A DNA stretch of 28,206 nt from Candidatus Woesearchaeota archaeon. Its GTDB lineage: Archaea > Nanobdellota > Nanobdellia > CAZVOT01. Under the pieces are notes generated by a model. The model was given only the letters and a program-made list of their open reading frames with translations, was not told the DNA's origin and did not search any database. The stretch is from the NCBI GenBank assembly GCA_964628775.1, contig CAZVOT010000001.1:1-28206 (forward strand). Direction: 5' to 3'. Positions 3,041 through 20,327 of this stretch are shown in pieces. Both the position numbers and the translations under genes were made by a program. Numbering within the stretch: position 1 is the stretch's first letter; every line of letters begins with the position of its first letter.

Positions 3041-3295
3041 ATGACAAAACCAGAATACTTTTATCTGCCCTGCGGTAAATTCGCAAAAACTGATTTTTCT
3101 GTAAAAAAAGAAGAAAAAACTGAGAGTTTAACTTCAATTTATGTACCAAGAAGCACAGGCAGTTCTTCAAATCCGATGAGTTTATGTTCTCTCCTTGAAA
3201 AATCACTTGATATGGGTATTGAGATACTAGATAGGATAGATAAAGAACTTAATGAGGGCATTCTTTATCTTTCCTTTGCTTTGGCTAACCAATAA
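3041..3295 (+). CDS. Hypothetical protein (orphan, uncertain)
   Basis: ATG-started 84-aa ORF filling the gap between rnz and the next promoter; no recognisable motif. Confidence 0.35.
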   Translation: MTKPEYFYLPCGKFAKTDFSVKKEEKTESLTSIYVPRSTGSSSNPMSLCSLLEKSLDMGIEILDRIDKELNEGILYLSFALANQ

Positions 3296-3320
3296 AAAGC
3301 AATTGTTAATGATATTAACC

Positions 3321-3336
3321 AAAAACCATTTAAAAT
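3321..3336 (+). promoter_or_regulatory. Putative BRE/TATA promoter
   Basis: AAAAACCA then TTTAAAAT (3329-3336), ending 23 nt before ATG 3360. Confidence 0.45.
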
Positions 3337-3359
3337 AGAGATTTGTTAATAATGTTAAC

Positions 3360-3695
3360 ATGAATTTAAAAGATGAACTTAAAGACAATGCCTTGAGATT
3401 CTACTCTTCAGCTAATTTAGTTTATTCGAATATGACAGATTTTACATCTGCAACCAGTTTATACTTTAAATCTTTATTTTCTTATTATGACTTTAAATTA
3501 TTTGATAAATTAAACACAGCTCTAAAAAATCACACAGAGAGATTCCAATTTCTTAAACTTTATTTCAAGAATTTGTATGAAGAAATAGACCCAATTTTTG
3601 AAATATACAGAAGTACATATACAACAAAAATATCGAAAGAGAGATGTGAGTATGCCAAAAAAATCGCTGAAAAACATATTAAAGAACTGCAATAA
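3360..3695 (+). CDS. HEPN-like helical protein
   Basis: 111 aa, all-helical pattern: A..FY.SA...Y...D...A..LYFKSLF...D, NHTERF, YRSTY. Overlaps an MNT gene. Confidence 0.55.
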   Translation: MNLKDELKDNALRFYSSANLVYSNMTDFTSATSLYFKSLFSYYDFKLFDKLNTALKNHTERFQFLKLYFKNLYEEIDPIFEIYRSTYTTKISKERCEYAKKIAEKHIKELQ

Positions 3696-4233
3696 ATTTA
3701 TTGTAGATAATTCTGAAGTTTTAGATGTAATAATCTTTGGTTCTTTTGTTAAAGGGAAGGACAAACCTACAGATATAGATTTTCTTTTAATTTTTAAGGA
3801 CAAGATTAATTTTGCTGTTTCATCTAAATTAAGGAAATTATTTGATAAAAGTGAGGTTACATCAAAAACATATAAAGAAGTATTTGAAATAACTTTTCTC
3901 CCAAGAGAGAGTATACTATCTGACAGTATAAGCTGTGTTACTGGTAAAAAACTATCTGAAAGCTACGGCTACGATTCTTTTGTTCTTTTCTCTTATAATC
4001 TCAAAAATTTTTCAAAAACAAAAAGAATACAATTTTTTTATGCTTTAAATGGAAGAAAAAGTGAGGGAATGATAAAAAAATTAAATGCCTGCAGATTATC
4101 AAATACTATCCTTATTGTTCCAACAGAAAATTCAATAGAGATGAGAGATTTTCTAAATGTGTGGAATGTTTCTTTTTTTGAATCTGAAATTCTCCTGCCT
4201 GAAAAAAAATTAAAATTATTGATAAAGAAATAA
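3652..4233 (+). CDS. Minimal nucleotidyltransferase (MNT) with extra C-terminal alpha/beta domain
   Basis: IIFGSFVKGKDKPTDIDFLL (GS...DxD). Likely start ATG 3652 (MPKKSL). About 75-aa C-terminal extension. Confidence 0.75.
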   Translation: MPKKSLKNILKNCNKFIVDNSEVLDVIIFGSFVKGKDKPTDIDFLLIFKDKINFAVSSKLRKLFDKSEVTSKTYKEVFEITFLPRESILSDSISCVTGKKLSESYGYDSFVLFSYNLKNFSKTKRIQFFYALNGRKSEGMIKKLNACRLSNTILIVPTENSIEMRDFLNVWNVSFFESEILLPEKKLKLLIKK

Positions 4234-4237
4234 AAAT

Positions 4238-6097
4238 CTATTTTTTGTCAAGAAATTCTTTTATTTTCAAGTCAGGGGTTTTGGTGAAATTTATTATCCA
4301 GTCAGTAGGCAGACATTTTAAGTAATTCTCCCAAGTGTATCTCTTGTCAATAAGAATAATAACACCTTTGTCTTTTTCAGAACGGATGCATCTCCCTGCT
4401 GCTTGTATGGTTCTATTCATTGCCGGATAAATATACCCATAATTCCATCCTGCTTTGAATTTTTTGTCATAATAATTTATAAGAGAATTTGTAAGCAAGT
4501 CTGGTTTTGATAGAGGAATTCCTATTACTGCAACACATTCTAAATTCTTTCCAGGCAAGTCAATACCTTCTGAAAAACTTCCTGCAGTACAGGCAGAGAG
4601 AACTGCTCCTTTGCTTGAAAGTGAAGTGAAATTTTTTAATAATTTTGCTTTGTCATCTTTTTTCATATTCTGCTTTTCAAGAATTATTTCCTTGTCTGTT
4701 ATTATTTTTTCTGTTATCTTGTCTCTTAAGAAATAGGAAGGAAAAAATAGAGCCATATTTGTTTTATAACAGTTTGTTATTTTTGAGCAGTACAGGGCAA
4801 TTTTTGAAAATTGGGAGTCATTTCTTTCTGAGTATTTTGTTGTTCCGTCAGGAACTATCAGTACAAGGCGGTTGTTTTTTGGAAAAGAACTTTCATATTC
4901 TTTTATCATTGTTCTTTTTTCTTCAAGTCCAAGAACATCCTGGTGCATTTTCTGAGGACGCATTGTTCCTGACATCAGTATTGAACAATGTGCTGAATCA
5001 AAAACTTCTTTTGAGACAATTGAAGGGTCCAGACAGGAGATTTCAAGTTCAAAATATTTTCTGTCATTGAATTTCTTTTTTCTCATTATTCTTGTAAATG
5101 CCGGTTTTTTTGATTCTTCGCTTGTCCAAAATTCAAGAAATTTTGCAACTGAGCCAAGATAAGTTCTTTTTTTTGTTTTTCTTACTTCTTCTGCATATTT
5201 GTTAAAAACACTTATTATGTCGTCAATTTTTTTGTTCAGTGTTTCTTCTACTTTTTCTCTGAATTCTTCTTCTTTTACAAAATATTCCTCTTCTTCTTTT
5301 TCAAGTTCCTTTATGCAGTCTAAAATCCAAATCAAGTCCTCCTGAATTTCAGTATTATCCAGTTCTCTTGCTTCTTTTATTGCCTTGTTTATTGTTGATG
5401 TTGTCAGTTTGCTGGATAATAATTCTCTTACTCTTGTTCCTAAATTATGGGCTTCATCAACAACTATTATGCAGTCAGAAAGTTCTTTTTTCATTTTTGT
5501 CAGGATTATTTTTCTTGGACTTGGATGGAATATATGATAATAATCTGCTATAATTACTCTTGCTGATTTTGCAAGCAGAAGGGCTATTTCATAGGGACAG
5601 AAGTTTTTGCATTTTTCTTTTGCTTCTTCTGCGTGAAGAGGACTTAATTTTTTTAATTCATCAATTTTTGATTTTGCGTTTTCTGAGAGTTCTGTTTTTT
5701 TCCAGATGTTATTATAATAAGCGCATAATTCTTCTGTTCTTAAATATCTGCAGTATTCTGTAAAATCTGAACTTAAAAGTTCATCTATATCAGATATACC
5801 ACAGAGCCATCTCTTTCCTATTAAATCAACTGTTTGTATTTCTGTTTTTGTTTTTTCCTTTATTTTTTTTATTGTGTCTATTACAATCATGTGCTGTGTG
5901 TGCCTGGGAGTCAAGAAAAATATTGTTTTGTCATTTTTTACTGCATATTCAAGTGCAGGAACAAGGACAGAAACAGTTTTTCCAAGTCCTGTTGGTGCGT
6001 GGGCAATAAGATTTTTCCTGCTTTCTACTGCTGTTTTTATATCTGCAATTAATTTGTCCTGTCCTTTTCTAATTTCATTATAAGGGAAAAAATCCAT
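4238..6097 (-). CDS. xpd: XPD/Rad3-family Fe-S DNA helicase
   Basis: APTGLGKT Walker A, DEAH, four Cys (RWLC, EYCRY, ELCAY, FCPYE), SGTM, SEGIDLPG, QAAGRCIRS. Confidence 0.9.
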   Translation of the reverse strand: MDFFPYNEIRKGQDKLIADIKTAVESRKNLIAHAPTGLGKTVSVLVPALEYAVKNDKTIFFLTPRHTQHMIVIDTIKKIKEKTKTEIQTVDLIGKRWLCGISDIDELLSSDFTEYCRYLRTEELCAYYNNIWKKTELSENAKSKIDELKKLSPLHAEEAKEKCKNFCPYEIALLLAKSARVIIADYYHIFHPSPRKIILTKMKKELSDCIIVVDEAHNLGTRVRELLSSKLTTSTINKAIKEARELDNTEIQEDLIWILDCIKELEKEEEEYFVKEEEFREKVEETLNKKIDDIISVFNKYAEEVRKTKKRTYLGSVAKFLEFWTSEESKKPAFTRIMRKKKFNDRKYFELEISCLDPSIVSKEVFDSAHCSILMSGTMRPQKMHQDVLGLEEKRTMIKEYESSFPKNNRLVLIVPDGTTKYSERNDSQFSKIALYCSKITNCYKTNMALFFPSYFLRDKITEKIITDKEIILEKQNMKKDDKAKLLKNFTSLSSKGAVLSACTAGSFSEGIDLPGKNLECVAVIGIPLSKPDLLTNSLINYYDKKFKAGWNYGYIYPAMNRTIQAAGRCIRSEKDKGVIILIDKRYTWENYLKCLPTDWIINFTKTPDLKIKEFLDKK

Positions 6098-6143
6098 TAG
6101 AAAGAGAATAGAATTTAGATTTAAAAAGGAAGCGGGTAATCTT

Positions 6144-6383
6144 TTAACTATCTTCTTTTAGTATTCTCATAAATTCTTCTTTTGTTATGTTAAAATCTTT
6201 TTTTATTATCTTTATTAAAAGTCCTGAGCCAATTTCTTCGCCATTATGAAAAGGAATTGTTGTTCTTCTGCCGTCTGGACGTTTATAAATATTATGACTT
6301 CCTTTTGTATGACTACGAAAAAAACCTAACTTTTCTGCTATTTTTCCAAGTTCTTTTTAAGTTAATTTTGGGAGTTTATCCAA
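6144..6383 (-). pseudogene. hicA: HicA-family mRNA interferase toxin with in-frame premature TAA (not in ORF track)
   Basis: Read by hand from TTG 6383: LDKLPKLT*KELGKIAEKLGFFRSHTKGSHNIYKRPDGRRTTIPFHNGEEIGSGLLIKIIKKDFNITKEEFMRILKEDS*. Has the GSH and TIPFH motifs. Internal stop at 6357-6359. Confidence 0.85.
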
Positions 6384-6387
6384 AAAT

Positions 6388-6600
6388 TTACACCGTTATT
6401 TGCTGAACACCTACAAATTCCTGTTCAATTTCTTGTTTTTTATTTTCTTCCAAACAAGCTGGTATTGCTTCTTTTGTTCTTCTTAAGAGTTCATCCATTG
6501 TTTTTGCTTGAGTGTGGCAGCCAGGAATTTCCAAAACTTCTGAGATTAACCATCTTTCTTCGTCTTTTTCTATTGCTATAGTATATTTTCTTGGTTTCAT
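6388..6600 (-). CDS. hicB: HicB-family antitoxin (short, no DNA-binding domain)
   Basis: EIPGCHTQAKTMDELLRRTKEAI motif; directly upstream of hicA. Confidence 0.85.
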   Translation of the reverse strand: MKPRKYTIAIEKDEERWLISEVLEIPGCHTQAKTMDELLRRTKEAIPACLEENKKQEIEQEFVGVQQITV

Positions 6601-6655
6601 AAAAAAATTAAGTCAACATAAAAATTTAAATAATTGCTTTTTAGTCATTCACAAA

Positions 6656-6663
6656 TTATATAA
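6656..6663 (+). promoter_or_regulatory. Putative TATA box
   Basis: TTATATAA ending 24 nt before ATG 6688. Confidence 0.45.
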
Positions 6664-6687
6664 AAAAATAAGGATATTAATAATAAT

Positions 6688-7260
6688 ATGAAAACTGAAG
6701 TTAGAACAGATATTCTTAATGTTTTATACAAAGCAGTTGAATGCCTGCAAAGAGAAGATTATAACTGCCTGCGCAATTTAAGCGATAAGACAGTTCATAA
6801 TTCAAGTATTTATCAAGATACCAGTTCCATTGGAATAAGTGTATTGATTTATGCTTTATCAAAACTTCTTTCAAAAGAGAGAATAAAACAGAAACATCCT
6901 GATGAATACAGAAGATTCCTTTTAAATTCCACGAAAAAAACCGTAAAAATGATTTCTTTTCTTGAAAGTTCAGATTATACTCTTTTTGAAGGACTGCTGA
7001 AAAGTTTTTTAAAAGACATATCTAATTTTGACAAAAAGTATTCTGAATATGTTCAGTGGGTTGTAACAAAAGCAAAAATAACAAAAGCAGAGAGGATATA
7101 TGAACACGGAATTTCACTTGGACAGGTTTCTGAACTCTTATCTATTCCTATTGCAGAAGTTATGTCTTATGTTGGACACACAAAGTTTTCAGAGAGAGAT
7201 GAATTTAGAACACTTAGCCCCAGAGAGAGAATAAAAAAAACCAGGAAGATTTTTGAATGA
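6688..7260 (+). CDS. Hypothetical helical protein with possible C-terminal HTH
   Basis: 190 aa; YEHGISLGQVSELLSIPIAEVMSY resembles an HTH. ATGA overlap with the next gene. Confidence 0.65.
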   Translation: MKTEVRTDILNVLYKAVECLQREDYNCLRNLSDKTVHNSSIYQDTSSIGISVLIYALSKLLSKERIKQKHPDEYRRFLLNSTKKTVKMISFLESSDYTLFEGLLKSFLKDISNFDKKYSEYVQWVVTKAKITKAERIYEHGISLGQVSELLSIPIAEVMSYVGHTKFSERDEFRTLSPRERIKKTRKIFE

Positions 7261-7937
7261 GAACTGTTGTTATTGATTCTTCAACATTAATTACTCTTTC
7301 TATGAACTGTCTTTTATGGACAATTGATAAATTAAACGACAAGACAGAATTTTATATAACTGAAGAAGTTGGAAAAGAGTCAATTTATAATCCTCTTAAT
7401 TCTGAAAAATGGGCTTTTGGAGCAATTAGAATAAACAAGAGTGCAGTAAAAACAATGAAGGTTTTCAGGAATTCTCATAAATTAAGAGATGGAACAGAAA
7501 AACTTCTTGAACTTATTAACAATACTTTTTATGCTAAAGGCAGAGCAATGAAAATAATTCACAGAGGAGAAATAGAATCAGTTGTTCTTGCAAAATACCT
7601 TTCTGCAAATGTTATTGCTACTGATGAGAAAACAATGAGATTACTGATTGAGGCTCCAAATCAGGTAAAGAATCTGCTTGAATCAAAACTGCATACATCA
7701 ATTAGGATTAATAATGATAATTTTAGGAGGATGACAGATTATCTTTCAGGTATAGAAGTTCTCCGTTCAGTTGATTTGATTTCATACTGCTTTGAAAAAG
7801 GTTATTTGGATTCTTTTTTAGCAGGAGAATGTAAAGGAAAAAAAAAACTGATTTGGAGCCTGCTTTGGGGGCTTAAATATTCAGGCTGTGCCATTTCCAG
7901 AGATGAGATAAATGAATATATAAGGGAATTAATTTGA
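7257..7937 (+). CDS. PIN-domain-like protein (extended)
   Basis: VVIDSSTLI, HRGEIESVVLA and ATDEKTMR provide PIN-type acidic residues; longer than a typical VapC. Confidence 0.6.
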   Translation: MRTVVIDSSTLITLSMNCLLWTIDKLNDKTEFYITEEVGKESIYNPLNSEKWAFGAIRINKSAVKTMKVFRNSHKLRDGTEKLLELINNTFYAKGRAMKIIHRGEIESVVLAKYLSANVIATDEKTMRLLIEAPNQVKNLLESKLHTSIRINNDNFRRMTDYLSGIEVLRSVDLISYCFEKGYLDSFLAGECKGKKKLIWSLLWGLKYSGCAISRDEINEYIRELI

Positions 7938-9055
7938 AAGCAGATAAAATTGGAATACAAAAAATAAAAACTCTGGCAGGAACAGATACCGTAGAAGTTA
8001 AGTTATATTCTGGAAGTAATATAACAAAAGCAAGTTCGCCTGCTGGAACTTCTTTTGGAAAGTATGAGACTCCGGCTTTTCCAGGAGGAATTGAAAAATG
8101 TTTATTAGAATTCAACAAAATAAAAAATAAAATAATGGAATTTGATGTTTCTGAACAGAAAAATCTTGATGAATTTTTGAAAAAAAATTATGATAGAATT
8201 GGAGGGAGTGTATCTCTTTCTGTATCTATTGCTTTTTTTAGGATGAATGCTTTAGTTCAGAATAAAGAACTTTATGAGTCATTCGGAGGGAAAAAATTTT
8301 CAATGCCAATATTATTATCCAATATAATAGGAGGAGGAGTTCACTCCAAGGACGGAGCAGATATACAGGAATTTCTTGTTTTTGAGCCAAAAGCAAAAAG
8401 TTTTCAGGAGAGTTTTTTTAAAAATATGAGCGCTTACAAACTGATTGAAAAAAAATTACAATCAAAAATAAAAGGAAAAAATATTGAATTTGCTTATATT
8501 GTTGATATGAACACAGAGGAGATTTTAGATAATTTATCACAAATCTGTGATTTTTACGGACTAAAAATTGGACTTGATGTTGCCGCCAACTCGTTATTTG
8601 ACGGGAAGAATTATGTTTATAAAAAGGACAAGAAAGTGCTTTCTTTTGAAGAGCAGAGAATGTACTTAAATTCCTTGATTGATAAGTATAATATCCAGTA
8701 TATAGAGGATCCTTTAAATGAGGATGATTTTTCTGGTTTTGGCAAAATAAAATGCAGAATGGTTTGTGCTGATGACTTGACTGCAACAAATAGGTTTAGG
8801 CTTAAAAAAGCAGGAAAATATGTGAATTCTTCAATAGTAAAGCCCAATCAAATAGGAAATGTAAGCGATACAATTGCTTATGTTAAAGAGTGCAGAAAGA
8901 TGAAAATAACACCTGTTGTTTCCCACCGCTCGCAGGAAACTGATGATGATTTTATCGCACATTTGGCTGTCGGCTTTTCAATCCCTTTTGTTAAGATAGG
9001 ACTAAACAGAATTTCAAAATTAAACACATTGAGAGATATTGAGGAGAGATTATGA
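7934..9055 (+). CDS. eno: Enolase (short, divergent)
   Basis: GGGVHS, IQEF, GLDVAA, IEDP, ADDL, VKPNQIG, SHRSQET, VKIG. TTG start overlapping the upstream TGA. Confidence 0.9.
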   Translation: MKADKIGIQKIKTLAGTDTVEVKLYSGSNITKASSPAGTSFGKYETPAFPGGIEKCLLEFNKIKNKIMEFDVSEQKNLDEFLKKNYDRIGGSVSLSVSIAFFRMNALVQNKELYESFGGKKFSMPILLSNIIGGGVHSKDGADIQEFLVFEPKAKSFQESFFKNMSAYKLIEKKLQSKIKGKNIEFAYIVDMNTEEILDNLSQICDFYGLKIGLDVAANSLFDGKNYVYKKDKKVLSFEEQRMYLNSLIDKYNIQYIEDPLNEDDFSGFGKIKCRMVCADDLTATNRFRLKKAGKYVNSSIVKPNQIGNVSDTIAYVKECRKMKITPVVSHRSQETDDDFIAHLAVGFSIPFVKIGLNRISKLNTLRDIEERL

Positions 9056-10231
9056 GGAATTATTTTCTACCGGCTTTTTTTCACAGATTAATTCATGTTT
9101 TAGCAAATCATTTAATGTTTTAAATTGTTTTGAACAAAATTTGCATTTTCCCTCTCTTAATATAGCATCTAAATATACCATTCTAAAATAAAGAGAATTT
9201 ACCAAATCTTCTGAAAGTTTTTCTTCATCAATTTTTTTAAAAAGAGTATTAGAATTATTTTTTAATTTATTTTTTATTTTTAAAGAGGATATATCTATAT
9301 TAACTTTTTCAATCCTCTCTTTTAAAGTTGGATGAGATGAAAATAATGATGTTTTTTCTTTTTTTAATATTTCTTCTTTTATCTTATTAGTATCTTCTTT
9401 TTTATAATTTTCATAAATTAATTTGTATACATTTACACAACTTTTTTTTTCTTTTATAAGTTTAAAGATATCTTCACTTCCTTTTTTGTTAAAATAATAT
9501 GAATAAGCAGAGTAATTTAACAAAGCATTTGCAAATGTTTTTTTACCAGAAAATTTTGAAGATATATAATCCGCTCTATACTCAACTTGTCTGGAATAAA
9601 TTGAAGTAAAAATATTGAATATAAATAGATAACATCTTAAAAATAAAATTAAATATAAGTTAAGTAAAATATTTGCAGGATGCCGGGATTTTTTTATTGA
9701 ATTTTTTCCAAAATTGTATAAACTGACAAGAGATATATTTATTTTTGAAAAAATAGAACTAATAACTGTATCTTTTCCATAGAAATGTCCAAATTCATGG
9801 TATAATATAGATTCTAACTCTTTCTTTGAAATTGCTCTTAAAGTTGTGATACCCAAACCTAATATTTTTTTGTTAAAACCAGATACGTATATATCTGCAG
9901 TTGGAAGAATTATTACTTTGGATGGTATTTTTACATTTAAATCTCCGGAAATTTTTTTTATTATTTCAAATAGTTCCTCATTATCCTCTTCATTTATTTT
10001 TATACCTTTTTCACTGGATTTCAAAAAAAGAGAATATACAAGAGGAATCAAAAAAATTATAATGAGTATAAATCCTGTTTTTGAAAAAATAAAAATAATC
10101 TCTTTTCTTTCAGCGAAAACCCCCAAAAAATATAAAAATAAATACATTGAAAAAATAATCAGCAATGAAAAAATTAAACTAGAATAAATTCTTAATCTGG
10201 TATCTTTTGGAATTTTTATTTTTTTATTCAA
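9050..10231 (-). CDS. M48/HtpX-family membrane zinc metalloprotease with C-terminal Cys/His finger
   Basis: N-terminal TM helices, HEFGH (HExxH), EYRAD, SHPTLKERI; ends CKFC-x12-HELIC. Confidence 0.85.
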   Translation of the reverse strand: MNKKIKIPKDTRLRIYSSLIFSLLIIFSMYLFLYFLGVFAERKEIIFIFSKTGFILIIIFLIPLVYSLFLKSSEKGIKINEEDNEELFEIIKKISGDLNVKIPSKVIILPTADIYVSGFNKKILGLGITTLRAISKKELESILYHEFGHFYGKDTVISSIFSKINISLVSLYNFGKNSIKKSRHPANILLNLYLILFLRCYLFIFNIFTSIYSRQVEYRADYISSKFSGKKTFANALLNYSAYSYYFNKKGSEDIFKLIKEKKSCVNVYKLIYENYKKEDTNKIKEEILKKEKTSLFSSHPTLKERIEKVNIDISSLKIKNKLKNNSNTLFKKIDEEKLSEDLVNSLYFRMVYLDAILREGKCKFCSKQFKTLNDLLKHELICEKKPVENNSS

Positions 10232-10296
10232 TATAAAAGTTAATACTTTTAGATTTATAAAAATTTTTTAATTAAATTCTATCAATTAGGAATTGA

Positions 10297-10791
10297 TTAA
10301 TAAATTTCAGAAATCAGTTCTTTGGGCAGTATACTTGTAATTTTTGAAAGTTCTAAGAAAAGAGAAACTTCGCATGGATGGGTTAAATTGAATTCTCTTA
10401 TTGTTTCTCTCAAGGAATTTTCATTGTACTTGATAAAATGTATACTCTGTACATCAAGTTCTTTTTTCTTTTTGTCATTAAAAATTTTATTTATTTCATC
10501 TTTTGATAGATTCACTCTTATTCTTGCGTGAAGTTCCGGTTTTCTAACTTTCCAGGTTTTTGGATTCTCCCATTTATCCTGGCGCCACATAAATAATTTA
10601 TCATTTGAAAGGGCATTTACTTCAATTGAATCTATATCAAAATGTTCTTCTTCTAAAATTCCAAGTTCTTCAAAAAGTTCTCTTGACATTTCTTCAACTG
10701 GGTGAGTTCCAGCAAGTTCAATATTTCCTCCAAAAACATGATAAGCACTGGGATAGAATGGCGTGTTATTTCCTCTTTTTGAAAGAGGCAT
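10297..10791 (-). pseudogene. N-terminally truncated duplicate of the Nudix gene at 13937-14899
   Basis: 164-aa ORF nearly identical to the C-terminal half of that protein; its ATG overlaps the PMK 3' end. Confidence 0.6.
10297..10791. repeat. Direct repeat copy 1 (offset 3640 bp from copy 2)
   Basis: 10335-10746 is identical to 13975-14386 (412 bp by manual comparison); both margins are diverged but alignable. Confidence 0.95.
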
Positions 10792-11905
10792 CTTCTTTTA
10801 TTCCTTCTTTGTCAATTTCAGCAGAAATAACATAAATCCCTGATTTTCTCCATTCAGATTCTATTTTATTCTTAATTTCATCAGAAAAACAAAGAGCAAT
10901 ACCGCAATCTCCACCACCTGCTCCTGATAATTTTCCAGCTCCTTTGTTTTTATCTGCAATTTCACAGAGTAATTTTAATTTTTCAGTTTCAATTTTTATA
11001 TTTGATTTTTTTCCAAGTAAAGATAATAATTTTTCATTTTCTTTTATTAATTCTAATATTTTGTTTTCATTTTCAGTTTTTAATGAAAAGATAAGTTGTT
11101 CTGTTAAAATTTTGATTTTATTGATTATTTCAAAATATTGGGATTCTCTTTCTGATTTAAATTCTTTCATTTTTTTTATCATTTCTGATGTTGATGCAGA
11201 ACTTCCTGTAAAACCAATTGATAATTTAAGATTTTTTGGAATTGCAGCATTTTTAACATAAAAACCATTCCACTTGGAATCAACAATGTCCTTTATACTT
11301 CTTTTTTGTTCAAATTGACTTAAAAACCAGTCCTGATAAAAAGTCCTGTAAACTAAAAATCCACCGAATACAGAAGCAGCAATATCAAAGCAGGAGCCGG
11401 ATTTTCCCTGAGCAAAATAATGAGCTATTGCTGAAAGTTTATATATCAGTTCTTTTGATTCTTTTTTTTCAATATCAAAATTATTGAATTTCAATATAGA
11501 TGAGATTATTGAAACGACAGATGCAGCAGAAGAACCAAAGCCGATTTTTTTTGATTCACTGTTGATATTTATTCTTGTTTCTTTTCCAGATGTTTCGAGT
11601 TTAAAGGGGTTTATTTTTTTGAGATAGGCATAAACTGTTTCAACTGCGGAGTTTGTGAATTTCAAAATCTCTTTTTGTTTATCTGTTAACTCCTTTAAAT
11701 AAACTAATTTTCCTTCTATAATTTCAGCAGGTATATTTCTTATGTTAAAATCTAAAAGGGAGAGGTATATGTTATTATCTTTTGATTCTGAAACTGATGA
11801 ATATATTCTTTTATTTACAGCACAGACAACTGCTAAATTATCTTTTTCTAAAATACTCCACTCTCCTGAAATCATAAGTTTTCCTGGGGCTGAAACTTTT
11901 ATCAT
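10766..11905 (-). CDS. mvaK2: Phosphomevalonate kinase (ERG8-like GHMP type, Gram-positive/mvaK2 style)
   Basis: SAPGKLMISGEW, KKIGFGSSAA, HYFAQGKSGSCFDIAASVFGG, GFTGSSAST, KLSGAGGGDCGIAL. Confidence 0.88.
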   Translation of the reverse strand: MIKVSAPGKLMISGEWSILEKDNLAVVCAVNKRIYSSVSESKDNNIYLSLLDFNIRNIPAEIIEGKLVYLKELTDKQKEILKFTNSAVETVYAYLKKINPFKLETSGKETRININSESKKIGFGSSAASVVSIISSILKFNNFDIEKKESKELIYKLSAIAHYFAQGKSGSCFDIAASVFGGFLVYRTFYQDWFLSQFEQKRSIKDIVDSKWNGFYVKNAAIPKNLKLSIGFTGSSASTSEMIKKMKEFKSERESQYFEIINKIKILTEQLIFSLKTENENKILELIKENEKLLSLLGKKSNIKIETEKLKLLCEIADKNKGAGKLSGAGGGDCGIALCFSDEIKNKIESEWRKSGIYVISAEIDKEGIKEDASFKKRK

Positions 11906-11911
11906 TTTTAG

Positions 11912-12919
11912 TCAAAATAGGTGTTCTTCAGTTAAATATGCGGATTTTCCGCATTTTAATTCATAAATTTCTTTAATTCCTTTTATTTTCCTGCATTCTG
12001 AAATTATTTTTTTTGCATCTTTTTCAAGACATATAATCTTGAGCTGTGGTCCAGCATCCATTGTAAAATAACATTCAATTCCTTTCTTGTTTATTTCATC
12101 AATTTTATAAATAATCTCTTTTGTTTTGTCATTTATGTAAATAATTGGAGGATTTGTAGTCAGCATTACTGCGTGCATTTTGAGGCAGTTTTCCTGCGCT
12201 GTTTTTCCAAGAAGAGAAAAATCTTTTTCAATTATCGCTTTTCTTGTTTTCTTTAAATCATCTTCAATTGAAGAAAGCCAGGAACTTTTGTAAATAGGAC
12301 TTGTTTTTACACTCTGAGACATACCTGCTCTTGATTTTATTTTTTTTTCTTTTTTTGAAGTTACACAAGCAATTAATCTGAGTTCTTTCCAATGATTCTC
12401 ATCTCTTATTGTTTCTGCATAAGAGTCCTTTCCGTCTTTTCTTTTTCCTTTTTTCCATTCAACAAAACCGCTTGGAATTGAACGAGAAGCAGAACCAGAA
12501 CCCCTTCTTGCTAAAATTGAAAGTTCTTTTTTATCAAGTCCTAAATTTAAAGCAGAATTTACTGCAAGAGAAAGAGCTGCAAAACCTGATGCTGATGATG
12601 CAAGTCCTGCTGATGTAGGGAAGTTGTTTTCTGTTTTTATTTTGACATTTTGTTTTATTTTAAATTCTTCCCGGATTATATTTAAAAATTTTTCAATGTA
12701 TTCTTTATAATCCTCTGAATTTTTATTTAATTTGTTATTATTTAGAATAAATATATCCTCTTTATATTTATTATCAAATTCAACAGTTGTTTTAGTAGTC
12801 ATTTTATCCAGAGTCATACTTATACTGCTGTTATACGGAAGAATAAGTTTGTCATCTCTTTTTCCCCAGTATTTAACAAGAGCAATATTTGAATTTGCTG
12901 CAGCCGAGGCTTTCATCAT
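11912..12919 (-). CDS. mvaD: Diphosphomevalonate decarboxylase
   Basis: SNIALVKYWGK, LPYNSSISMTL, NNFPTSAGLASSASG, ARRGSGSASRS, SRAGM, FTMDAGP. Start probably ATG 12919 or 12916. Confidence 0.9.
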   Translation of the reverse strand: MMKASAAANSNIALVKYWGKRDDKLILPYNSSISMTLDKMTTKTTVEFDNKYKEDIFILNNNKLNKNSEDYKEYIEKFLNIIREEFKIKQNVKIKTENNFPTSAGLASSASGFAALSLAVNSALNLGLDKKELSILARRGSGSASRSIPSGFVEWKKGKRKDGKDSYAETIRDENHWKELRLIACVTSKKEKKIKSRAGMSQSVKTSPIYKSSWLSSIEDDLKKTRKAIIEKDFSLLGKTAQENCLKMHAVMLTTNPPIIYINDKTKEIIYKIDEINKKGIECYFTMDAGPQLKIICLEKDAKKIISECRKIKGIKEIYELKCGKSAYLTEEHLF

Positions 12920-12989
12920 TAACTTAATAAAAAACACATTATTAAAATTTTTGAAAAGATATTTAATTTCTTGTTTTTTATAGTTATCT

Positions 12990-13940
12990 ATGTTTGAATC
13001 AAAATCAGCGGGAAATCTTTTTCTTTTTGGGGAACATGCAGTTGTTTATGGAAAACCTGCGGTAATAACCTCTGTTGATTTAAGAACAAAATGTTCTCTT
13101 GAAAAAAAAGACAGCGGGATTTCAATAAACTCAAAGGAACTTGGAACTGCAGAGGAAATAAATGGAGAAAAAACAGGAAATCCTGATTTATTCATTCTTC
13201 TTGATTTTTGCAGGGAACTTCTTTTTAAGTTTGAAATGACTTCTGGACTTAATATTTATATTGAATCAGAAATACCTGTTGCAAGCGGTATGAGTTCTTC
13301 AACAGCAGTTTTATGTTCAATTTTATCTGCTTTTTCAAAAGAATTTAACCTTAGTATAGAAAAAAAAGATTATTACAATTTAATCATAGAATCACAGAAA
13401 AAAATTCACGGAGGCAAGGCATCAGGTTCAGAAATAATAAGCAGTTCAATCGGCGGTTTTAATTATTTGTCTTTTAAAGATGGAAAATTAAATATTGTTG
13501 AACTTGATAAACTGCCTATTGATGTTGTAATAGGTGATACAGGAATTTCTATGAAAACTTCAACAACTGTTGGAGGATATATACCGAATTTAATGAAAGA
13601 AAAACCAGAGTTTGTTAAAAATGCTTTTGATAGAATTGAGGAAATATGCAACAGAGGAGTAGAGGCGATAAAAAGAAAAGATTTTGCTTTAATCGGACAA
13701 TTAATAAATGAAAACCAGAATGTTCTTTTCTCACTTGGACTTTCGCATCCAAAAATAGACTTGGCTGTAAAAAATGCTCTTTTGGCTGGTGCTTACGGCG
13801 CCAAACTCTCCGGCAAAGGACAAGGAGGGATTATGTTTGCAATAACAGATAAAGAACACAAAGAAAAAGTTGCTTTGGCAATAGAAGATTCAGGACTTAA
13901 AGTAATAAAAACAAAAATCGGAACAGAAGGATTAATCTAA
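12990..13940 (+). CDS. mvk: Mevalonate kinase-like GHMP kinase (atypical motifs)
   Basis: LFGEHAVVYGKPA, SEIPVASGMSSS, HGGKASG, GAKLSGKGQGG; next to mvaD and mvaK2. Confidence 0.75.
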   Translation: MFESKSAGNLFLFGEHAVVYGKPAVITSVDLRTKCSLEKKDSGISINSKELGTAEEINGEKTGNPDLFILLDFCRELLFKFEMTSGLNIYIESEIPVASGMSSSTAVLCSILSAFSKEFNLSIEKKDYYNLIIESQKKIHGGKASGSEIISSSIGGFNYLSFKDGKLNIVELDKLPIDVVIGDTGISMKTSTTVGGYIPNLMKEKPEFVKNAFDRIEEICNRGVEAIKRKDFALIGQLINENQNVLFSLGLSHPKIDLAVKNALLAGAYGAKLSGKGQGGIMFAITDKEHKEKVALAIEDSGLKVIKTKIGTEGLI

Positions 13941-14431
13941 TAAATTTCAGAAAGAAGTTCTTCTGGTTTTATATTTGTAATTTTTGAAAGTTCTAAGAAA
14001 AGAGAAACTTCGCATGGATGGGTTAAATTGAATTCTCTTATTGTTTCTCTCAAGGAATTTTCATTGTACTTGATAAAATGTATACTCTGTACATCAAGTT
14101 CTTTTTTCTTTTTGTCATTAAAAATTTTATTTATTTCATCTTTTGATAGATTCACTCTTATTCTTGCGTGAAGTTCCGGTTTTCTAACTTTCCAGGTTTT
14201 TGGATTCTCCCATTTATCCTGGCGCCACATAAATAATTTATCATTTGAAAGGGCATTTACTTCAATTGAATCTATATCAAAATGTTCTTCTTCTAAAATT
14301 CCAAGTTCTTCAAAAAGTTCTCTTGACATTTCTTCAACTGGGTGAGTTCCAGCAAGTTCAATATTTCCTCCAAAAACATGATAAGCTCCTGGGTAGAATG
14401 GGGTGTTATTTCCTCTTTTTGAAAGAGTTAT
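13937..14431. repeat. Direct repeat copy 2
   Basis: See copy 1; lies within the 3' half of the full-length Nudix gene. Confidence 0.95.
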
Positions 14432-15003: not shown

Positions 15004-15972
15004 ATGAAAATAACTGTTCTTGGTGCTGGTAATTGGGGGACTGCTTTTGCCAGAATTCTCTCTAAAAACAAACACGAGATTGTTATATGGACAATTGAAG
15101 AGGATGTTTTTCGCGATATAAATGAAAATCATGTTAATACAAAATATCTAAAAGGTGTAAATCTGCCAGAATCAATAAGAGCAGAAAGGGATTTAGGCAG
15201 TGCTGTTTCAAAAGCAGATTTTATTGTTATAGCTGTTCCTTCGCACATAGTTTCTATTGTTTCCAAACAGCTTGCAGAATTTTACAAAAATCAGCCCATT
15301 ATTGACCTTGCCAAAGGATTTGAACCGAATATCTTTCTCAGGATGAGCGAAACAATAAAAAAAGAGATTCCAAGTGCTGATGTTATCGCTCTTTCAGGCC
15401 CATCTATTGCAAATGAAGTTGCTTTAGATATTCCAACATCAGTTTCAATTGCTGGAGATAATAAAGAAACCTTAAAATTAGCAAAAGAGATTCTTGAATC
15501 AGAGAATTTCCATGTTTTTCCGAATAATGATATTATTGGCGTTGAAATGGGCGGAATTTTGAAGAATGTTATTGCTATTGCAGGAGGCATGTCTGACGGA
15601 CTTGGATTTGGCTGTAACACCAAGTCTGCCATTATCACAAATGGACTTAAAGAAATGAAAAGAATTGGTGTTTCTCTTGGAGCAAAAGAAGAAACTTTTT
15701 TTGAACTTTCCGGGATAGGAGATTTGATTGTAACTTCTATTTCAGAGGATGGAAGAAACAGGACTCTTGGCGAGAAACTAGGCAGGGGTATGACTCTTGA
15801 AGAGATAAAAAAAGAATCGCTTCAGGTTATGGAAGGAGTCAATGCCTGTTCATTGGCAATAAAGATTGCAGATGAGAAGAAAATTTCTGTTCCTATTACA
15901 AGGGAAATCTATGATGTTCTTTTTAATAATAAAAAGCCAATATCTGCTGTTAGAAAAATTCTTTCTTTATGA
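15004..15972 (+). CDS. gpsA: NAD(P)H-dependent glycerol-3-phosphate dehydrogenase (bacterial type)
   Basis: VLGAGNWGTA, NTKYL, AVPSH, LAKG.E, LSGPS.A.EV, DIIGVEMGGILKNVIAIAGG, GIGDLIVT, RNRTLG, EGV. Confidence 0.93.
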   Translation: MKITVLGAGNWGTAFARILSKNKHEIVIWTIEEDVFRDINENHVNTKYLKGVNLPESIRAERDLGSAVSKADFIVIAVPSHIVSIVSKQLAEFYKNQPIIDLAKGFEPNIFLRMSETIKKEIPSADVIALSGPSIANEVALDIPTSVSIAGDNKETLKLAKEILESENFHVFPNNDIIGVEMGGILKNVIAIAGGMSDGLGFGCNTKSAIITNGLKEMKRIGVSLGAKEETFFELSGIGDLIVTSISEDGRNRTLGEKLGRGMTLEEIKKESLQVMEGVNACSLAIKIADEKKISVPITREIYDVLFNNKKPISAVRKILSL

Positions 15973-16661: not shown

Positions 16662-19600
16662 TTAAGTTTTATTCAGTTCGTCAATTATTCTTTTTTTTTC
16701 TTCTTCATTCAAGTCTGTTTTTTCCAGAAGAATTTTTCTTTCAATTGAAGAAACAAGGACTCTTGTTTTATTTACAACATCAGGATTGACACTCATACTG
16801 TCTATGCCTTCTTTCACTAAAAATTCACAGAAATCCGGATAGACACTGGGAGCCTGCCCGCATATTGAAACCTTGACTCCATTTTCGTGTGCTCTTCTGA
16901 TTAAATTTACTATTGCTCTTTTTACTGCTTCATCTCTTTCATCAAAGTAGCCCATTTTTGCAAGAAGCGCTGAATCTCTGTCACATCCAAGAATTAACTG
17001 GGTCAAGTCATTGCTGCCAATTGAAAAACCGTCGCAGAGTTTTGAAAATTCATTTGCCATAAAGATAATGCTCGGCACTTCTGCCATAAGCCACAGTTCA
17101 AATGAATCCTCCCCTCTTTTTAGTCCTTCGCTTTCCAAGATTGAGATTATTCTTTTTACTTCCCATAAATTCCTGACAAATGGAAGCATTACCTTTACAT
17201 TTTTATGTCCGTAGATATCTCTTACTTTTTTTATTGCTCTGCATTCTAGTCTAAAAGAGGATTCAAATTCTGGAGAAATGTATCTTGAGCATCCTCTCCA
17301 GCCAATCATCGGGTTTTCTTCTTTTGGTTCAAATTTTTCTCCGCCTTTTAAACTTCTATATTCATTTGTCTTGAAATCAGATAATCTAACTACAACCAGC
17401 TTTCCGTCCATTGCTTTTGCTGTTTTTGCAATTCCTTCTGCTAATTTGTCTATATATTCACTGCCTCTTCCTTGTTCTAACATTGCATTTGGATGTTCTG
17501 CTATGTAAGATGCTATAATAAATTCTATTCTCATAAGTCCTATTCCGTCGCACCATAATTTGGAATATTCATCTGCTTTTTCTGGAACTCCTAGATTCAT
17601 GTATATTTTTGTTGATGTAATTGGTTTTGATGTTTCTCCATTTAGGAATTCTTCTTTTTTCTCTTGTTTTATTTCAATCTTTCCGCCGTAGACTATTCCT
17701 CTTACTGCATCAAGAGTTACTTCCTGATTATGTTTTATTACTTTTGTTGCAGTTGAGGTTCCCACTATGCATGGGATTCCAAGTTCTCTAGATACAATCG
17801 CTGCATGGCAGTTTGAAACAAGAACAGGAGAGTATTTTTTTGTAAATACAACATAGTTATGCTGTATTTCATTGTCTGCTTCAACTTCAATATTGTAAAC
17901 ATCAATAACTCCAAGTTCTTTTACTTTTTTTGTTCTGTACATTCTTAAATCAGAATTAATAACTTTTGAAAGTTCTTCCTTTGTTTTTCCATCAAGCATA
18001 GGAAGAATCTTCTGCTTTATTTTTTCAGAATCAATCAGTAGATTGCTGTTTACATAGGGTTTTACTTTTCCTTTGTAATTTACAGATTCAATTATATCTC
18101 TTAGAACCTGTTTTGCTGAAAATAATTTTGTTCCATTGATTTTTTTATGTGTTTCTCCTTTTATTCTTTTTGAATAAAATAGAATATCCTCTATCTTTTC
18201 CATTATCTGGATATGATGTATATTCCTATTTACAGTAACTTCCGGAACAATGCCTAATTTTAAGCAGGCAAGAACAACTCCTTGGATTACTTTTTCTTTC
18301 TGTATATAGATATGCAGTCTATTTTCATAAAATGAGCCGTCGCCGTCAATAAGTCCTGCAAGGAAATTTAATGCTGAGCTTTCTGATATTTCAAGCAGCC
18401 ATGAATCAAGATTCTCATAAATTTCCATAATTTTTTGTGCAGGAACAAGTTTAAAACAGACAAAATCTGTTGCACATCCACAGATTGTTTTTCCTCTTAA
18501 AGTAGATGAACTTGATTTATCTCTTTCAAAAGTCATTTCTTCACTGAATAAATCGCTGTAATATTCTTTTACTATTTTGATAAACTCTGCTTTTTGTATA
18601 TCCTGTTTTTGAGTAAAAGTTACTCTTCCTATTCTGGCATTTCCTGATTTATATTTATCTACCCTTATGTTCCCATCAGATAAAAGAGCACCCATTAGAT
18701 ATCCTAATTTATCATTTTTAATGCTTGCTAAATTTATTGGAAGTTTTTCAACAATACAGAGATGTTCATTATCTTCAAGAATACTTTTTATTTCTTTTTT
18801 TATCAATTCTCTTCCTTTGAATGTAAATACTTTGTGATTCTCTGTTATATCTAAAGTATTATGTTCTATTCTATTTGATTGAGAAGTAGATATACTAATT
18901 GCACTGCTTTTTCTTTTAAATGAATTTATGATTCTTTTCCAGACAGGTTTTAAATTTTTAGAATCAAATGAGAAGATAAATAACTCCTCATTAGAATTTA
19001 TTTTTTCATAAACTTCGCTTATTTTTAAAAATCCTTTGTTTGTCAGGATATTTGTATGTTCTCCAAAACAAGTCATTCCACCTTCATCAGTTATTATTCC
19101 TGATGCTTTTAGCATTATTGGAACCCAGTCAGGGTCAGTCATTCTTGTAACTAAAATATCCCCTTTTTCTATTTTATCAGCTTGTTCAGGAGATAAAATC
19201 AATGATGCTTTTCCTGATGCAATTCCTGGACTTGCTCCAAGTCCTTTTATTATAATATTGCCTTCAGGTTCTTTTCTTTCCTCTGTTTCTTCTTTTCCAA
19301 AGAAAGTAATAGGTCTTGACTGGACAATATATAGATGTCCTTCTTCAATGCACCATTCAATATCCTGCGGAACTTTGTAATAATTTTCTATTTTTTTTAC
19401 TATTTTTGCAAGTTCTATTATCTGGGAATCATCAAGAACCTGGGTTTTCTTTTTGTTTTCAGGAAGTTCTACTTTTATCATACCCATATCATCAGGATTT
19501 CTTATATACTTCCACTGCTGTTCGCCGATGCTTTTATTTTTTATTTCAAATGTTTCTTTATTAACAATATAATTGTTTGGAGTTATTTCTCCTCCTACAA

Positions 19601-20327
19601 CTGCATCACCCTGCCCCCAGCCAGCTTCAATTATTATTTCGTTTTTATTTCCTGTTGAAGGATGAATTGAAAATGCTGTTCCAGCTTTTTCAGAGTCAAT
19701 CTGTTTCTGGACAATTGCACATAAAAGAACTTTTTCATGTTCAAATCCGTTTTTTTCCCTGTAGAATATTGCTCTTGCAGTATAAAGTGAAGCCCAGCAT
19801 TCTTTTATTGCTCTGATTAATTGTTCTTCTCCTTTTACAAATAATATTGTTGCCTGCTGTCCTGCAAAACTAGCATTAGGCAAATCTTCTGCTGTTGCTG
19901 AAGAACGTACTACCACATAAGGAATGTCTCTTCCTGCTGAAATTAATTTCATTGCATTATCGCTTAGATTTTCGTATCTCTCACTTCCAGCTTTCATTTT
20001 TTTGTATGCTTCCAATATTTTTGATAAAATATGTTCTGGAATACTTTTTGACATTACTATTTCTCTGATTTTTTCTGATGCCAACTGGATTGCTTTTGTG
20101 TCATCAACATCAATTGATTTTAATATTGAGAAAATGCTTTCTTTAATTCCTGTTTCTTCCATAAACTCCTTGAAAATGTAAGCATTTATTGCAAATCCCA
20201 TGGGTACAGGAAAACCTGCTTTTGTCATTTCACCTAAGTTTGCAGCTTTTCCGCCGACAATTGGAATATCCTCTTTTCCAATTTCCTTAAACCATAAGAT
20301 AGATTTTTCTTTTTTGTCAATTTCCAT
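16662..20327 (-). CDS. ppsA: Phosphoenolpyruvate synthase (PEP synthetase), intein-containing; about 801 aa after splicing
   Basis: VGGKAANLGEM, VRSSATAEDLPNASFAGQ, DIEW, VQSRPIT, GGMT-CHAAIVSRELG (phospho-His), GLMRIEF, PMIGWRG, SIGSNDLTQ, ICGQAPS. Confidence 0.95.
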   Translation of the reverse strand: MEIDKKEKSILWFKEIGKEDIPIVGGKAANLGEMTKAGFPVPMGFAINAYIFKEFMEETGIKESIFSILKSIDVDDTKAIQLASEKIREIVMSKSIPEHILSKILEAYKKMKAGSERYENLSDNAMKLISAGRDIPYVVVRSSATAEDLPNASFAGQQATILFVKGEEQLIRAIKECWASLYTARAIFYREKNGFEHEKVLLCAIVQKQIDSEKAGTAFSIHPSTGNKNEIIIEAGWGQGDAVVGGEITPNNYIVNKETFEIKNKSIGEQQWKYIRNPDDMGMIKVELPENKKKTQVLDDSQIIELAKIVKKIENYYKVPQDIEWCIEEGHLYIVQSRPITFFGKEETEERKEPEGNIIIKGLGASPGIASGKASLILSPEQADKIEKGDILVTRMTDPDWVPIMLKASGIITDEGGMTCFGEHTNILTNKGFLKISEVYEKINSNEELFIFSFDSKNLKPVWKRIINSFKRKSSAISISTSQSNRIEHNTLDITENHKVFTFKGRELIKKEIKSILEDNEHLCIVEKLPINLASIKNDKLGYLMGALLSDGNIRVDKYKSGNARIGRVTFTQKQDIQKAEFIKIVKEYYSDLFSEEMTFERDKSSSSTLRGKTICGCATDFVCFKLVPAQKIMEIYENLDSWLLEISESSALNFLAGLIDGDGSFYENRLHIYIQKEKVIQGVVLACLKLGIVPEVTVNRNIHHIQIMEKIEDILFYSKRIKGETHKKINGTKLFSAKQVLRDIIESVNYKGKVKPYVNSNLLIDSEKIKQKILPMLDGKTKEELSKVINSDLRMYRTKKVKELGVIDVYNIEVEADNEIQHNYVVFTKKYSPVLVSNCHAAIVSRELGIPCIVGTSTATKVIKHNQEVTLDAVRGIVYGGKIEIKQEKKEEFLNGETSKPITSTKIYMNLGVPEKADEYSKLWCDGIGLMRIEFIIASYIAEHPNAMLEQGRGSEYIDKLAEGIAKTAKAMDGKLVVVRLSDFKTNEYRSLKGGEKFEPKEENPMIGWRGCSRYISPEFESSFRLECRAIKKVRDIYGHKNVKVMLPFVRNLWEVKRIISILESEGLKRGEDSFELWLMAEVPSIIFMANEFSKLCDGFSIGSNDLTQLILGCDRDSALLAKMGYFDERDEAVKRAIVNLIRRAHENGVKVSICGQAPSVYPDFCEFLVKEGIDSMSVNPDVVNKTRVLVSSIERKILLEKTDLNEEEKKRIIDELNKT
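17811..19070 (-). mobile_element. Intein with LAGLIDADG homing endonuclease (420 aa, residues 420-839 of PpsA)
   Basis: Interrupts GGMT|CHAA. Starts Cys (CFGEHT), block B TENHKV, LAGLIDADG-type blocks YLMGALLSDG and FLAGLIDGDG, block F VYNIEV..HNYV, ends Ser-Asn before Cys+1. Confidence 0.93.

Follow-up and report, generated by a model that had tools for sequence, protein, structure and literature searches.

Genes and active-site residues of the locus

We analysed a window of 28,206 nucleotides from the genome of a Candidatus Woesearchaeota archaeon, in which genes for a phosphomevalonate kinase (PMK) and a diphosphomevalonate decarboxylase (MDD) adjoin an intact open reading frame (ORF) that starts with ATG and encodes a 316-residue protein of the mevalonate kinase (MVK) family (Table 1). 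The protein contains GHMP_N and GHMP_C domains and scores 175.7 bits on the TIGR00549 equivalog model, a narrow margin over the cut-off of 163.05. PMK models score it far below their own cut-offs (TIGR01220, 38 bits vs 165.7; NF040957, 27.7 bits vs 500), its motif 3 ends in GQGG and not in the PMK-type GGGD, and a bona fide PMK adjoins it. The AF2 model of the protein has a pLDDT of 94.3, the structures ranked 1-12 by Foldseek are all MVKs, with M. mazei MVK (6mde, TM 0.87-0.90) as the best match, and HMMER comparison with solved MVKs yields E-values of 1e-13 to 7e-21 for the eukaryotic and trypanosomatid forms. The neighbouring PMK retains the canonical motifs APGK, GFGSSAA and SGAGGGD, as a previous sequence-only reading of this locus had stated.

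Several other features were observed in the window. A bacterial-type gpsA gene lies beside the mevalonate cassette, and the PMK-MDD-MVK trio is bracketed by a 300-nt direct repeat (97% identical, 3640 bp spacing), which corresponds to the C-terminal part of a 335-aa Nudix-like ORF and to a 164-aa truncated copy of it; the Nudix match of the longer ORF is weak (PF00293, E = 0.006). Further along, a PEP-utilising, PEP synthase-like enzyme of 1221 aa is interrupted by an intein of about 420 aa, seen in translation.

Table 1. Features of the window, with the evidence for each (positions in nucleotides of the window)
Feature	Position	Strand	Evidence
Direct repeat, first copy	10298..10597		97% identity to second copy
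Truncated copy of Nudix-like ORF, 164 aa	10297..10791	-
Phosphomevalonate kinase, Gram-positive type	10766..11905	-	TIGR01220, 253 bits vs cut-off 165.7
Diphosphomevalonate decarboxylase	11912..12937	-	TIGR01240, 327 bits vs cut-off 171.35; MVD-like_N and MDD_C
Predicted MVK, N/Q/E subfamily, 316 aa	12990..13940	+	TIGR00549, GHMP_N/GHMP_C, AF2, Foldseek
Motif 1, A7-G8-N9 (N encoded by AAT)	13008..13016	+	Codon translation, HMMER alignment
E15-H16 of GEHAVVYG, mevalonate-recognition residues, retained	13032..13037	+	Aligned with LmMK E24/H25 and MmMK H16 (PMC1851959, PMC6283576)
Motif 2 (P-loop), P96-A106, PVASGMSSSTA	13275..13307	+	Codon translation, HMMER alignment
Q136 in place of the Mg-ligand Glu (rat E193, LmMK E144)	13395..13397	+	HMMER pairing with 2hfs chain E147 = native E144 (PMC1851959)
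Catalytic loop, H140-E148, HGGKASGSE	13407..13433	+	Codon translation, HMMER alignment
Motif 3, L273-G280, LSGKGQGG	13806..13829	+	Codon translation
Direct repeat, second copy	13938..14237		97% identity to first copy
Nudix-like ORF, 335 aa	13937..14944	-	PF00293
gpsA, bacterial type	15004..15972
PEP synthase-like enzyme with intein	16662..20327	-	Translation

Residues were mapped through HMMER alignments to the M. mazei enzyme (MmMK; 6mde/4hac), to 8teb and to Leishmania major MVK (LmMK; 2hfs), combined with the published equivalences between LmMK and rat MVK (PMC1851959). Codon translation and these alignments bear out the four departures from canonical MVKs that the sequence-only reading had listed (AGN, PVASGMSSST, SGSE and GKGQGG). 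In motif 1, N9 aligns on the conserved Lys (rat K13, LmMK K18, MmMK K9); A7 is shared by only a few sequences, and Pro occupies that position in at least 90% of the clade described below. The P-loop Gly (rat G144) is changed to S102, next to S103 and S104, which are kept and correspond to rat S145 and S146, the Mg/phosphate serines. E148 aligns on the catalytic Asp (rat/human D204), so that the carboxylate is kept on a side chain one methylene longer, and in motif 3 K276 and Q278 align on the second and fourth residues of GAGGGG. Two changes absent from that list belong to the same package: of the Mg2+ ligand pair of rat MVK, Ser146 and Glu193, the Ser is kept (S104) and the Glu becomes Gln (Q136), and the catalytic loop carries a one-residue insertion, G142, ahead of the catalytic carboxylate.

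The residues expected to bind the substrates follow the canonical pattern. E15 is invariant in the clade alignment, and among the 120 nearest homologues 107 have H16 and the remainder F, Y or P; S145, equivalent to rat S201 (LmMK S152), is retained. On the basis of motif alignment in the S-x-x-P register, we take S93 (13266-13268) to be the adenine-contact residue Ser135 of the human enzyme, and S93, S103 and S104 are invariant across the clade. S274, at the position of rat T243, is retained. As far as alignment can tell, the putative adenine (S93), phosphate (S103, S104, S274, K272) and mevalonate (E15, H16, S145) residues are thus retained and mostly invariant.

Conservation and distribution of the N/Q/E subfamily

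Homologues were collected as the best 120 matches in a 5.8-billion-protein collection, with 40-62% identity to the window MVK (mean about 45%). S102, Q136, S145 and E148 are present in 120/120 of these nearest homologues, position 9 is N in 113/119 and S in 6/119, and the clade shows no variation at H140, G141 or G142; we refer to proteins with this combination as the N/Q/E type. The pattern is reproduced in independent collections: all 18 loci of the type in GTDB genomes, and all 28 on metagenome contigs, read N/S-S-Q-E at the four positions, the metagenome loci having been retrieved by an alignment-based scan where a single-protein scan gave no match. The other 62 GTDB loci all carry the Lys, the P-loop Gly and the Asp, and at the E193 position they mostly carry Glu, with Val or Asp in the rows of PMK-like class 3 kinases discussed below. 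Of the other 34 metagenome rows, 31 read K-G-E-D; the remaining three score low and are irregular, none of them with the N/S-S-Q-E set. No row mixing the two residue types was found in the GTDB or metagenome sets, or among 50%-identity representatives. The pattern at residue 9, conserved throughout the subfamily, also rules out the suggestion of the sequence-only reading that the AAT codon might be a read error for AAA.

Phylogenetic analysis places these proteins in a single lineage. The N/Q/E type forms one clade in a FastTree phylogeny of 182 rows (SH-like support 99), requiring one change, and in an IQ-TREE LG+C20 phylogeny of 68 rows (SH-aLRT 100), and its support is still 99 when the motif columns are removed. 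On this sequence evidence, the N/Q/E type is an old, monophyletic and strongly conserved subfamily. Since all changes fall on one branch of the tree, the apparent covariation of the residues is a single historical event, beyond statistical testing.

The motif-3 Lys does not share this conservation. K276 is found in only 24/118 clade members, essentially the subclade of the window MVK itself, and position 278 is W in 88/118 and Q in 19/118, which makes the K276/Q278 combination specific to the CPR-linked subclade of the query. Lys, Arg or Trp at these positions are also found in canonical K/E/D MVKs, and basic residues in motif 3 occur in a canonical enzyme of our set (L096, LSGKGLGGC) and in Chloroflexi (GGGRGGN). 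Where the sequence-only reading had proposed a compensating rearrangement of the active site around the new motif-3 Lys, a rewired and compensated site remains the best reading, and the Lys loses its part as general compensator. We also considered and rejected K/R143, in the HGG-K segment, as a clade-specific substitute for K13: a basic residue is present there in 101/120 homologues, but canonical MVKs, too, commonly have K, R, T or N ahead of PSG, and 11 members have no basic residue at 143, 276 or 278.

The type is found in Iainarchaeota/Diapherotrites, Aenigmatarchaeota, Undinarchaeota, Micrarchaeota and Nanohaloarchaeota, plus some CPR bacteria. None of 340 further genomes drawn from the class/phylum of the window carries it, and their MVKs, where present, are canonical. 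The closest relatives of the window MVK, with 56-59% identity, lie on bacterial contigs (L121, 3417-13875; L124, 2112-11912, and L125) that also carry RecG, a Mur ligase, a PBP5-type carboxypeptidase and an MraY-like transferase, a gene content that agrees with their database labels of Patescibacteria/Parcubacteria. The archaeal identity of the host is marked by XPD with an HBB domain, L10e and DUF63 in the window, and by S28e in the genome. Because the type is missing from all 340 sampled genomes of the class/phylum and its nearest relatives reside on bacterial contigs, the lower-mevalonate cassette of the window archaeon was probably acquired laterally, with CPR bacteria as its nearest known holders.

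The genome of the host (G000; loci L005:1468-3129 on contig C7 and C2:26411-27130) encodes GGGPS, UPPS, IPK and HMGS, the last as a 554-aa protein with a C-terminal extension, and IspH was not found in it. The presence of GGGPS, UPPS and IPK, together with the missing IspH, indicates that the host needs the mevalonate pathway. HMG-CoA reductase (PF00368), archaeal AACT, UbiD, AcnX and IDI2 were not found in this assembly of 224 contigs (median 3 kb), and the absence of HMGR and AACT could reflect an assembly gap or mevalonate salvage. Elsewhere in the genome, on contig C77, a 596-aa ORF (L004:256-2043) is a fusion in which a GHMP-kinase N-terminal domain (residues 106-180) is followed by a class I SAM methyltransferase domain (about 403-570).

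Genomic role and competing explanations

The TIGR00549 model is a sensitive probe for GHMP kinases, because PMK and MDD surface as sub-threshold matches in its searches. In the window's own genome the window MVK is alone above the cut-off. In five DPANN genomes (Iainarchaeum, two Aenigmatarchaeota, an Undinarchaeota and a Micrarchaeota) the N/Q/E orthologue, with 172.6-208.8 bits, is the sole match above it, and in four of the five it is the only match of any score; the search thus found no second, canonical MVK in any of these genomes.

Gene neighbourhoods, read by neighbour clustering together with Pfam/NCBIfam scans, place the N/Q/E kinase in both variants of the mevalonate pathway. Two Iainarchaeum loci (L011 and L130) hold an archaeal-route operon with the order HMGR-HMGS-AACT-DUF35-[N/Q/E kinase]-UbiX-UbiD-AcnX large-AcnX small-IPK(-IDI2). 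The L130 operon (3088-13254) has eleven genes, all on one strand, which encode the archaeal mevalonate route in full, HMGR through IDI2; the N/Q/E kinase lies in mid-operon. From acetoacetyl-CoA to DMAPP, the other genes of the L011/L130 operon account for all steps but that of mevalonate kinase. Parts of the archaeal-route set surround the kinase at seven further loci (L015, L016, L018, L020, L023, L024 and L138). The classical route is represented by the order MDD-PMK-[N/Q/E]-IDI2 in L013, by association with PMK and MDD in L014 and L123-L126, as in the window, and by association with MDD and a PMK-like "class 3" kinase in L017, L121 and L122. Both routes start from mevalonate 5-phosphate (PMC11052028), and the occurrence of the N/Q/E type in the kinase slot of each indicates that it is most likely a real MVK.

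We therefore predict, with fairly high confidence, that the window ORF encodes a working ATP:(R)-mevalonate 5-phosphotransferase that provides the PMK and MDD encoded next to it with mevalonate 5-phosphate, because its genomic role, its operon context, the retained binding residues and a structural model closest to M. mazei MVK concur on this function. The protein is then a homologue that most likely works as an MVK and departs from the literature-defined catalytic residues at three positions.

The sequence-only reading had also entertained a changed substrate or a pseudo-kinase. A kinase of altered specificity, acting on another acceptor, with another regiochemistry, or with another nucleotide donor or metal, so that mevalonate 5-kinase activity would not be its function or not its sole one, would account for the clade-wide, invariant replacement of three chemistry and metal residues and for TIGR00549 scores just over the cut-off (173-209 vs 163 bits). 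The P-loop GxSSS of the N/Q/E type, which resembles the galactokinase loop, was counted in its favour as well. We nevertheless consider altered specificity unlikely, since the mevalonate-recognition residues E15, H16 and S145 and the adenine Ser S93 are kept, and the type fills the MVK slot in two pathway architectures whose downstream steps both consume mevalonate 5-phosphate. Four of the five DPANN genomes searched have no other GHMP kinase, and a shift in metal or nucleotide preference alone would still leave an MVK.

A catalytically dead protein with a structural or regulatory role is suggested by the loss of a Lys/Asp pair described as strictly conserved (PMC1851959, PMC6283576) and of the Mg-ligand Glu. 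It is very unlikely given that the carboxylate E148 is kept in 120/120 homologues, that the P-loop serines, motif 3 and the substrate-binding residues are invariant, and that the type has persisted in CPR and in no fewer than five DPANN phyla. The genomes with complete mevalonate operons, in which the N/Q/E type is the sole MVK candidate, would moreover be left with no MVK. That the window gene is a private degenerate copy, or the product of a sequencing or assembly error, might be suspected from a fragmented MAG of 224 contigs and from the near-identical direct repeat that flanks the trio; with the ORF intact and the pattern shared by all 120 nearest homologues and by 46 independent loci of two other collections, the chance of this is negligible. 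A working MVK thus remains the preferred reading.

Proposed mechanism and comparison with known systems

In canonical MVKs the active site is built around a Lys-Asp pair, with a Glu and a Ser holding Mg (PMC1851959, PMC6283576). In the N/Q/E subfamily the chemistry residues have been exchanged as one package: Lys to Asn/Ser, Glu to Gln, Asp to Glu with a loop insertion, and P-loop Gly to Ser. E148, as the sole remaining active-site carboxylate, may take over as general base or as organiser of a water network, with the inserted G142 re-spacing the loop for the longer Glu side chain and N9 orienting E148 by a hydrogen bond that would stand in for the Lys-Asp salt bridge. One positive charge (Lys) and one negative charge (Glu193) would be lost together, leaving the net charge of the site the same, and Mg-ATP could be bound, directly or via water, by S104 together with S102 and Q136, with the Gly to Ser change supplying an extra P-loop hydroxyl. 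Alternatively, transfer might be substrate-assisted, as has been proposed for homoserine kinase (PMC6283576).

In human MVK, kcat falls more than 40,000-fold when Ala or Asn is put in place of the catalytic Asp, and about 56-fold when the Lys is changed to Met (figures cited in PMC6283576 and PMC1851959); the literature yielded no data on an Asp-to-Glu mutant of MVK. The human mutant data could mean that the natural residue combination is slow or that its mechanism is different. We tentatively propose, as one possibility, that the N/Q/E subfamily is a mechanistically distinct MVK lacking the Lys-Asp pair and the Glu Mg ligand, with Glu-centred or substrate-assisted chemistry and perhaps another metal or nucleotide dependence, which has been exchanged between DPANN and CPR in mobile lower-mevalonate cassettes.

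The closest known relatives are the archaeal MVKs (EC 2.7.1.36, TIGR00549) of M. mazei (4HAC, 6MDE, 6MDF) and Methanococcoides burtonii (8TEB), which have the same fold (TM 0.87-0.91) at about 30% identity. They share with the window MVK the short archaeal architecture, GEHAVVYG, the P-loop serines, the Ser before the catalytic carboxylate, the motif-3 glycine loop and the position in a mevalonate operon. The window MVK has N9, S102, Q136 and E148 in place of K9, the P-loop Gly, the Glu aligned with E193 and D138 of MmMK, plus the G142 insertion. The eukaryotic and trypanosomatid MVKs (rat 1KVK, human 2R3V, Leishmania major 2HFS/2HFU) are homologous GHMP kinases and the source of the residue equivalences used here (PMC1851959). 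Their catalytic pair is K13/D204 and their Mg ligands are S146/E193; K13, D204 and E193 are changed in the window MVK, and the eukaryotic forms have a lobe of roughly 50 residues that is absent from it. Hoshino & Gaucher reported that DPANN MVKs cluster apart from those of other archaea, and noted a link between the mevalonate-pathway enzymes of CPR and archaea (PMC6107057). The N/Q/E subfamily offers a clean marker for the exchange of mevalonate genes between the ultra-small DPANN and CPR lineages.

Two further groups of proteins match the MVK model. The "class 3" MVK-like kinases of CPR and DPANN (APGKLM...VLDVQ-GxGSGFD...GAGGGDC) pass TIGR00549 (P0132, 219.7 bits), are annotated as MVK and occur in the same operons, as in L017:2849-3805, L121:5991-6953, L088, L092, L099, L100 and P0132. 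They keep the Lys and Asp and have a GGGD motif of the PMK type. An MVK of the canonical or N/Q/E type accompanies them, often together with MDD, and they are probably the PMKs of their operons, annotated in databases as MVK. A further rewired class was observed in P0139, P0140, P0154, P0167, P0170, P0172, P0181, P0185, P0200, P0215, P0228 and P0229, in which Glu or Gln mostly replaces the motif-1 Lys, Gly stands where the catalytic Asp would be, and two residues upstream there is a Lys or Arg (AS-K-x-G); P0139 scores 248.5 bits on TIGR00549. For annotation, three classes pass the MVK model (canonical, N/Q/E and PMK-like), and filters based on catalytic residues would wrongly drop the N/Q/E type.

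The textbook mechanism proposed for MVK, with an Asp base, a Lys that lowers the pKa, and Glu and Ser on Mg, rests on residues of which the Asp, the Lys and the Glu are replaced here. Miller & Kung describe the Lys as "strictly conserved among MKs" (PMC6283576), and in the structure paper of Sgraja et al. the Lys, or the Lys/Asp pair, is called strictly conserved (PMC1851959); in the open-access literature we found no description of these substitutions and no assayed DPANN/CPR MVK of the type. An apparently functional and widespread lineage in which three "strictly conserved" residues have changed at once provides a natural test of their necessity. Among known systems, homoserine kinase and other GHMP kinases without a catalytic base transfer phosphate without the Lys/Asp pair, through direct deprotonation via the ATP gamma-phosphate (PMC6283576). 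Homoserine kinase is distant from the window MVK (TIGR00191, 36.6 bits; NF002288, 44.6 bits), which, unlike the base-free enzymes, keeps a carboxylate at E148; the N/Q/E type could be used to test whether GHMP kinases switch between base-assisted and direct phosphoryl transfer.
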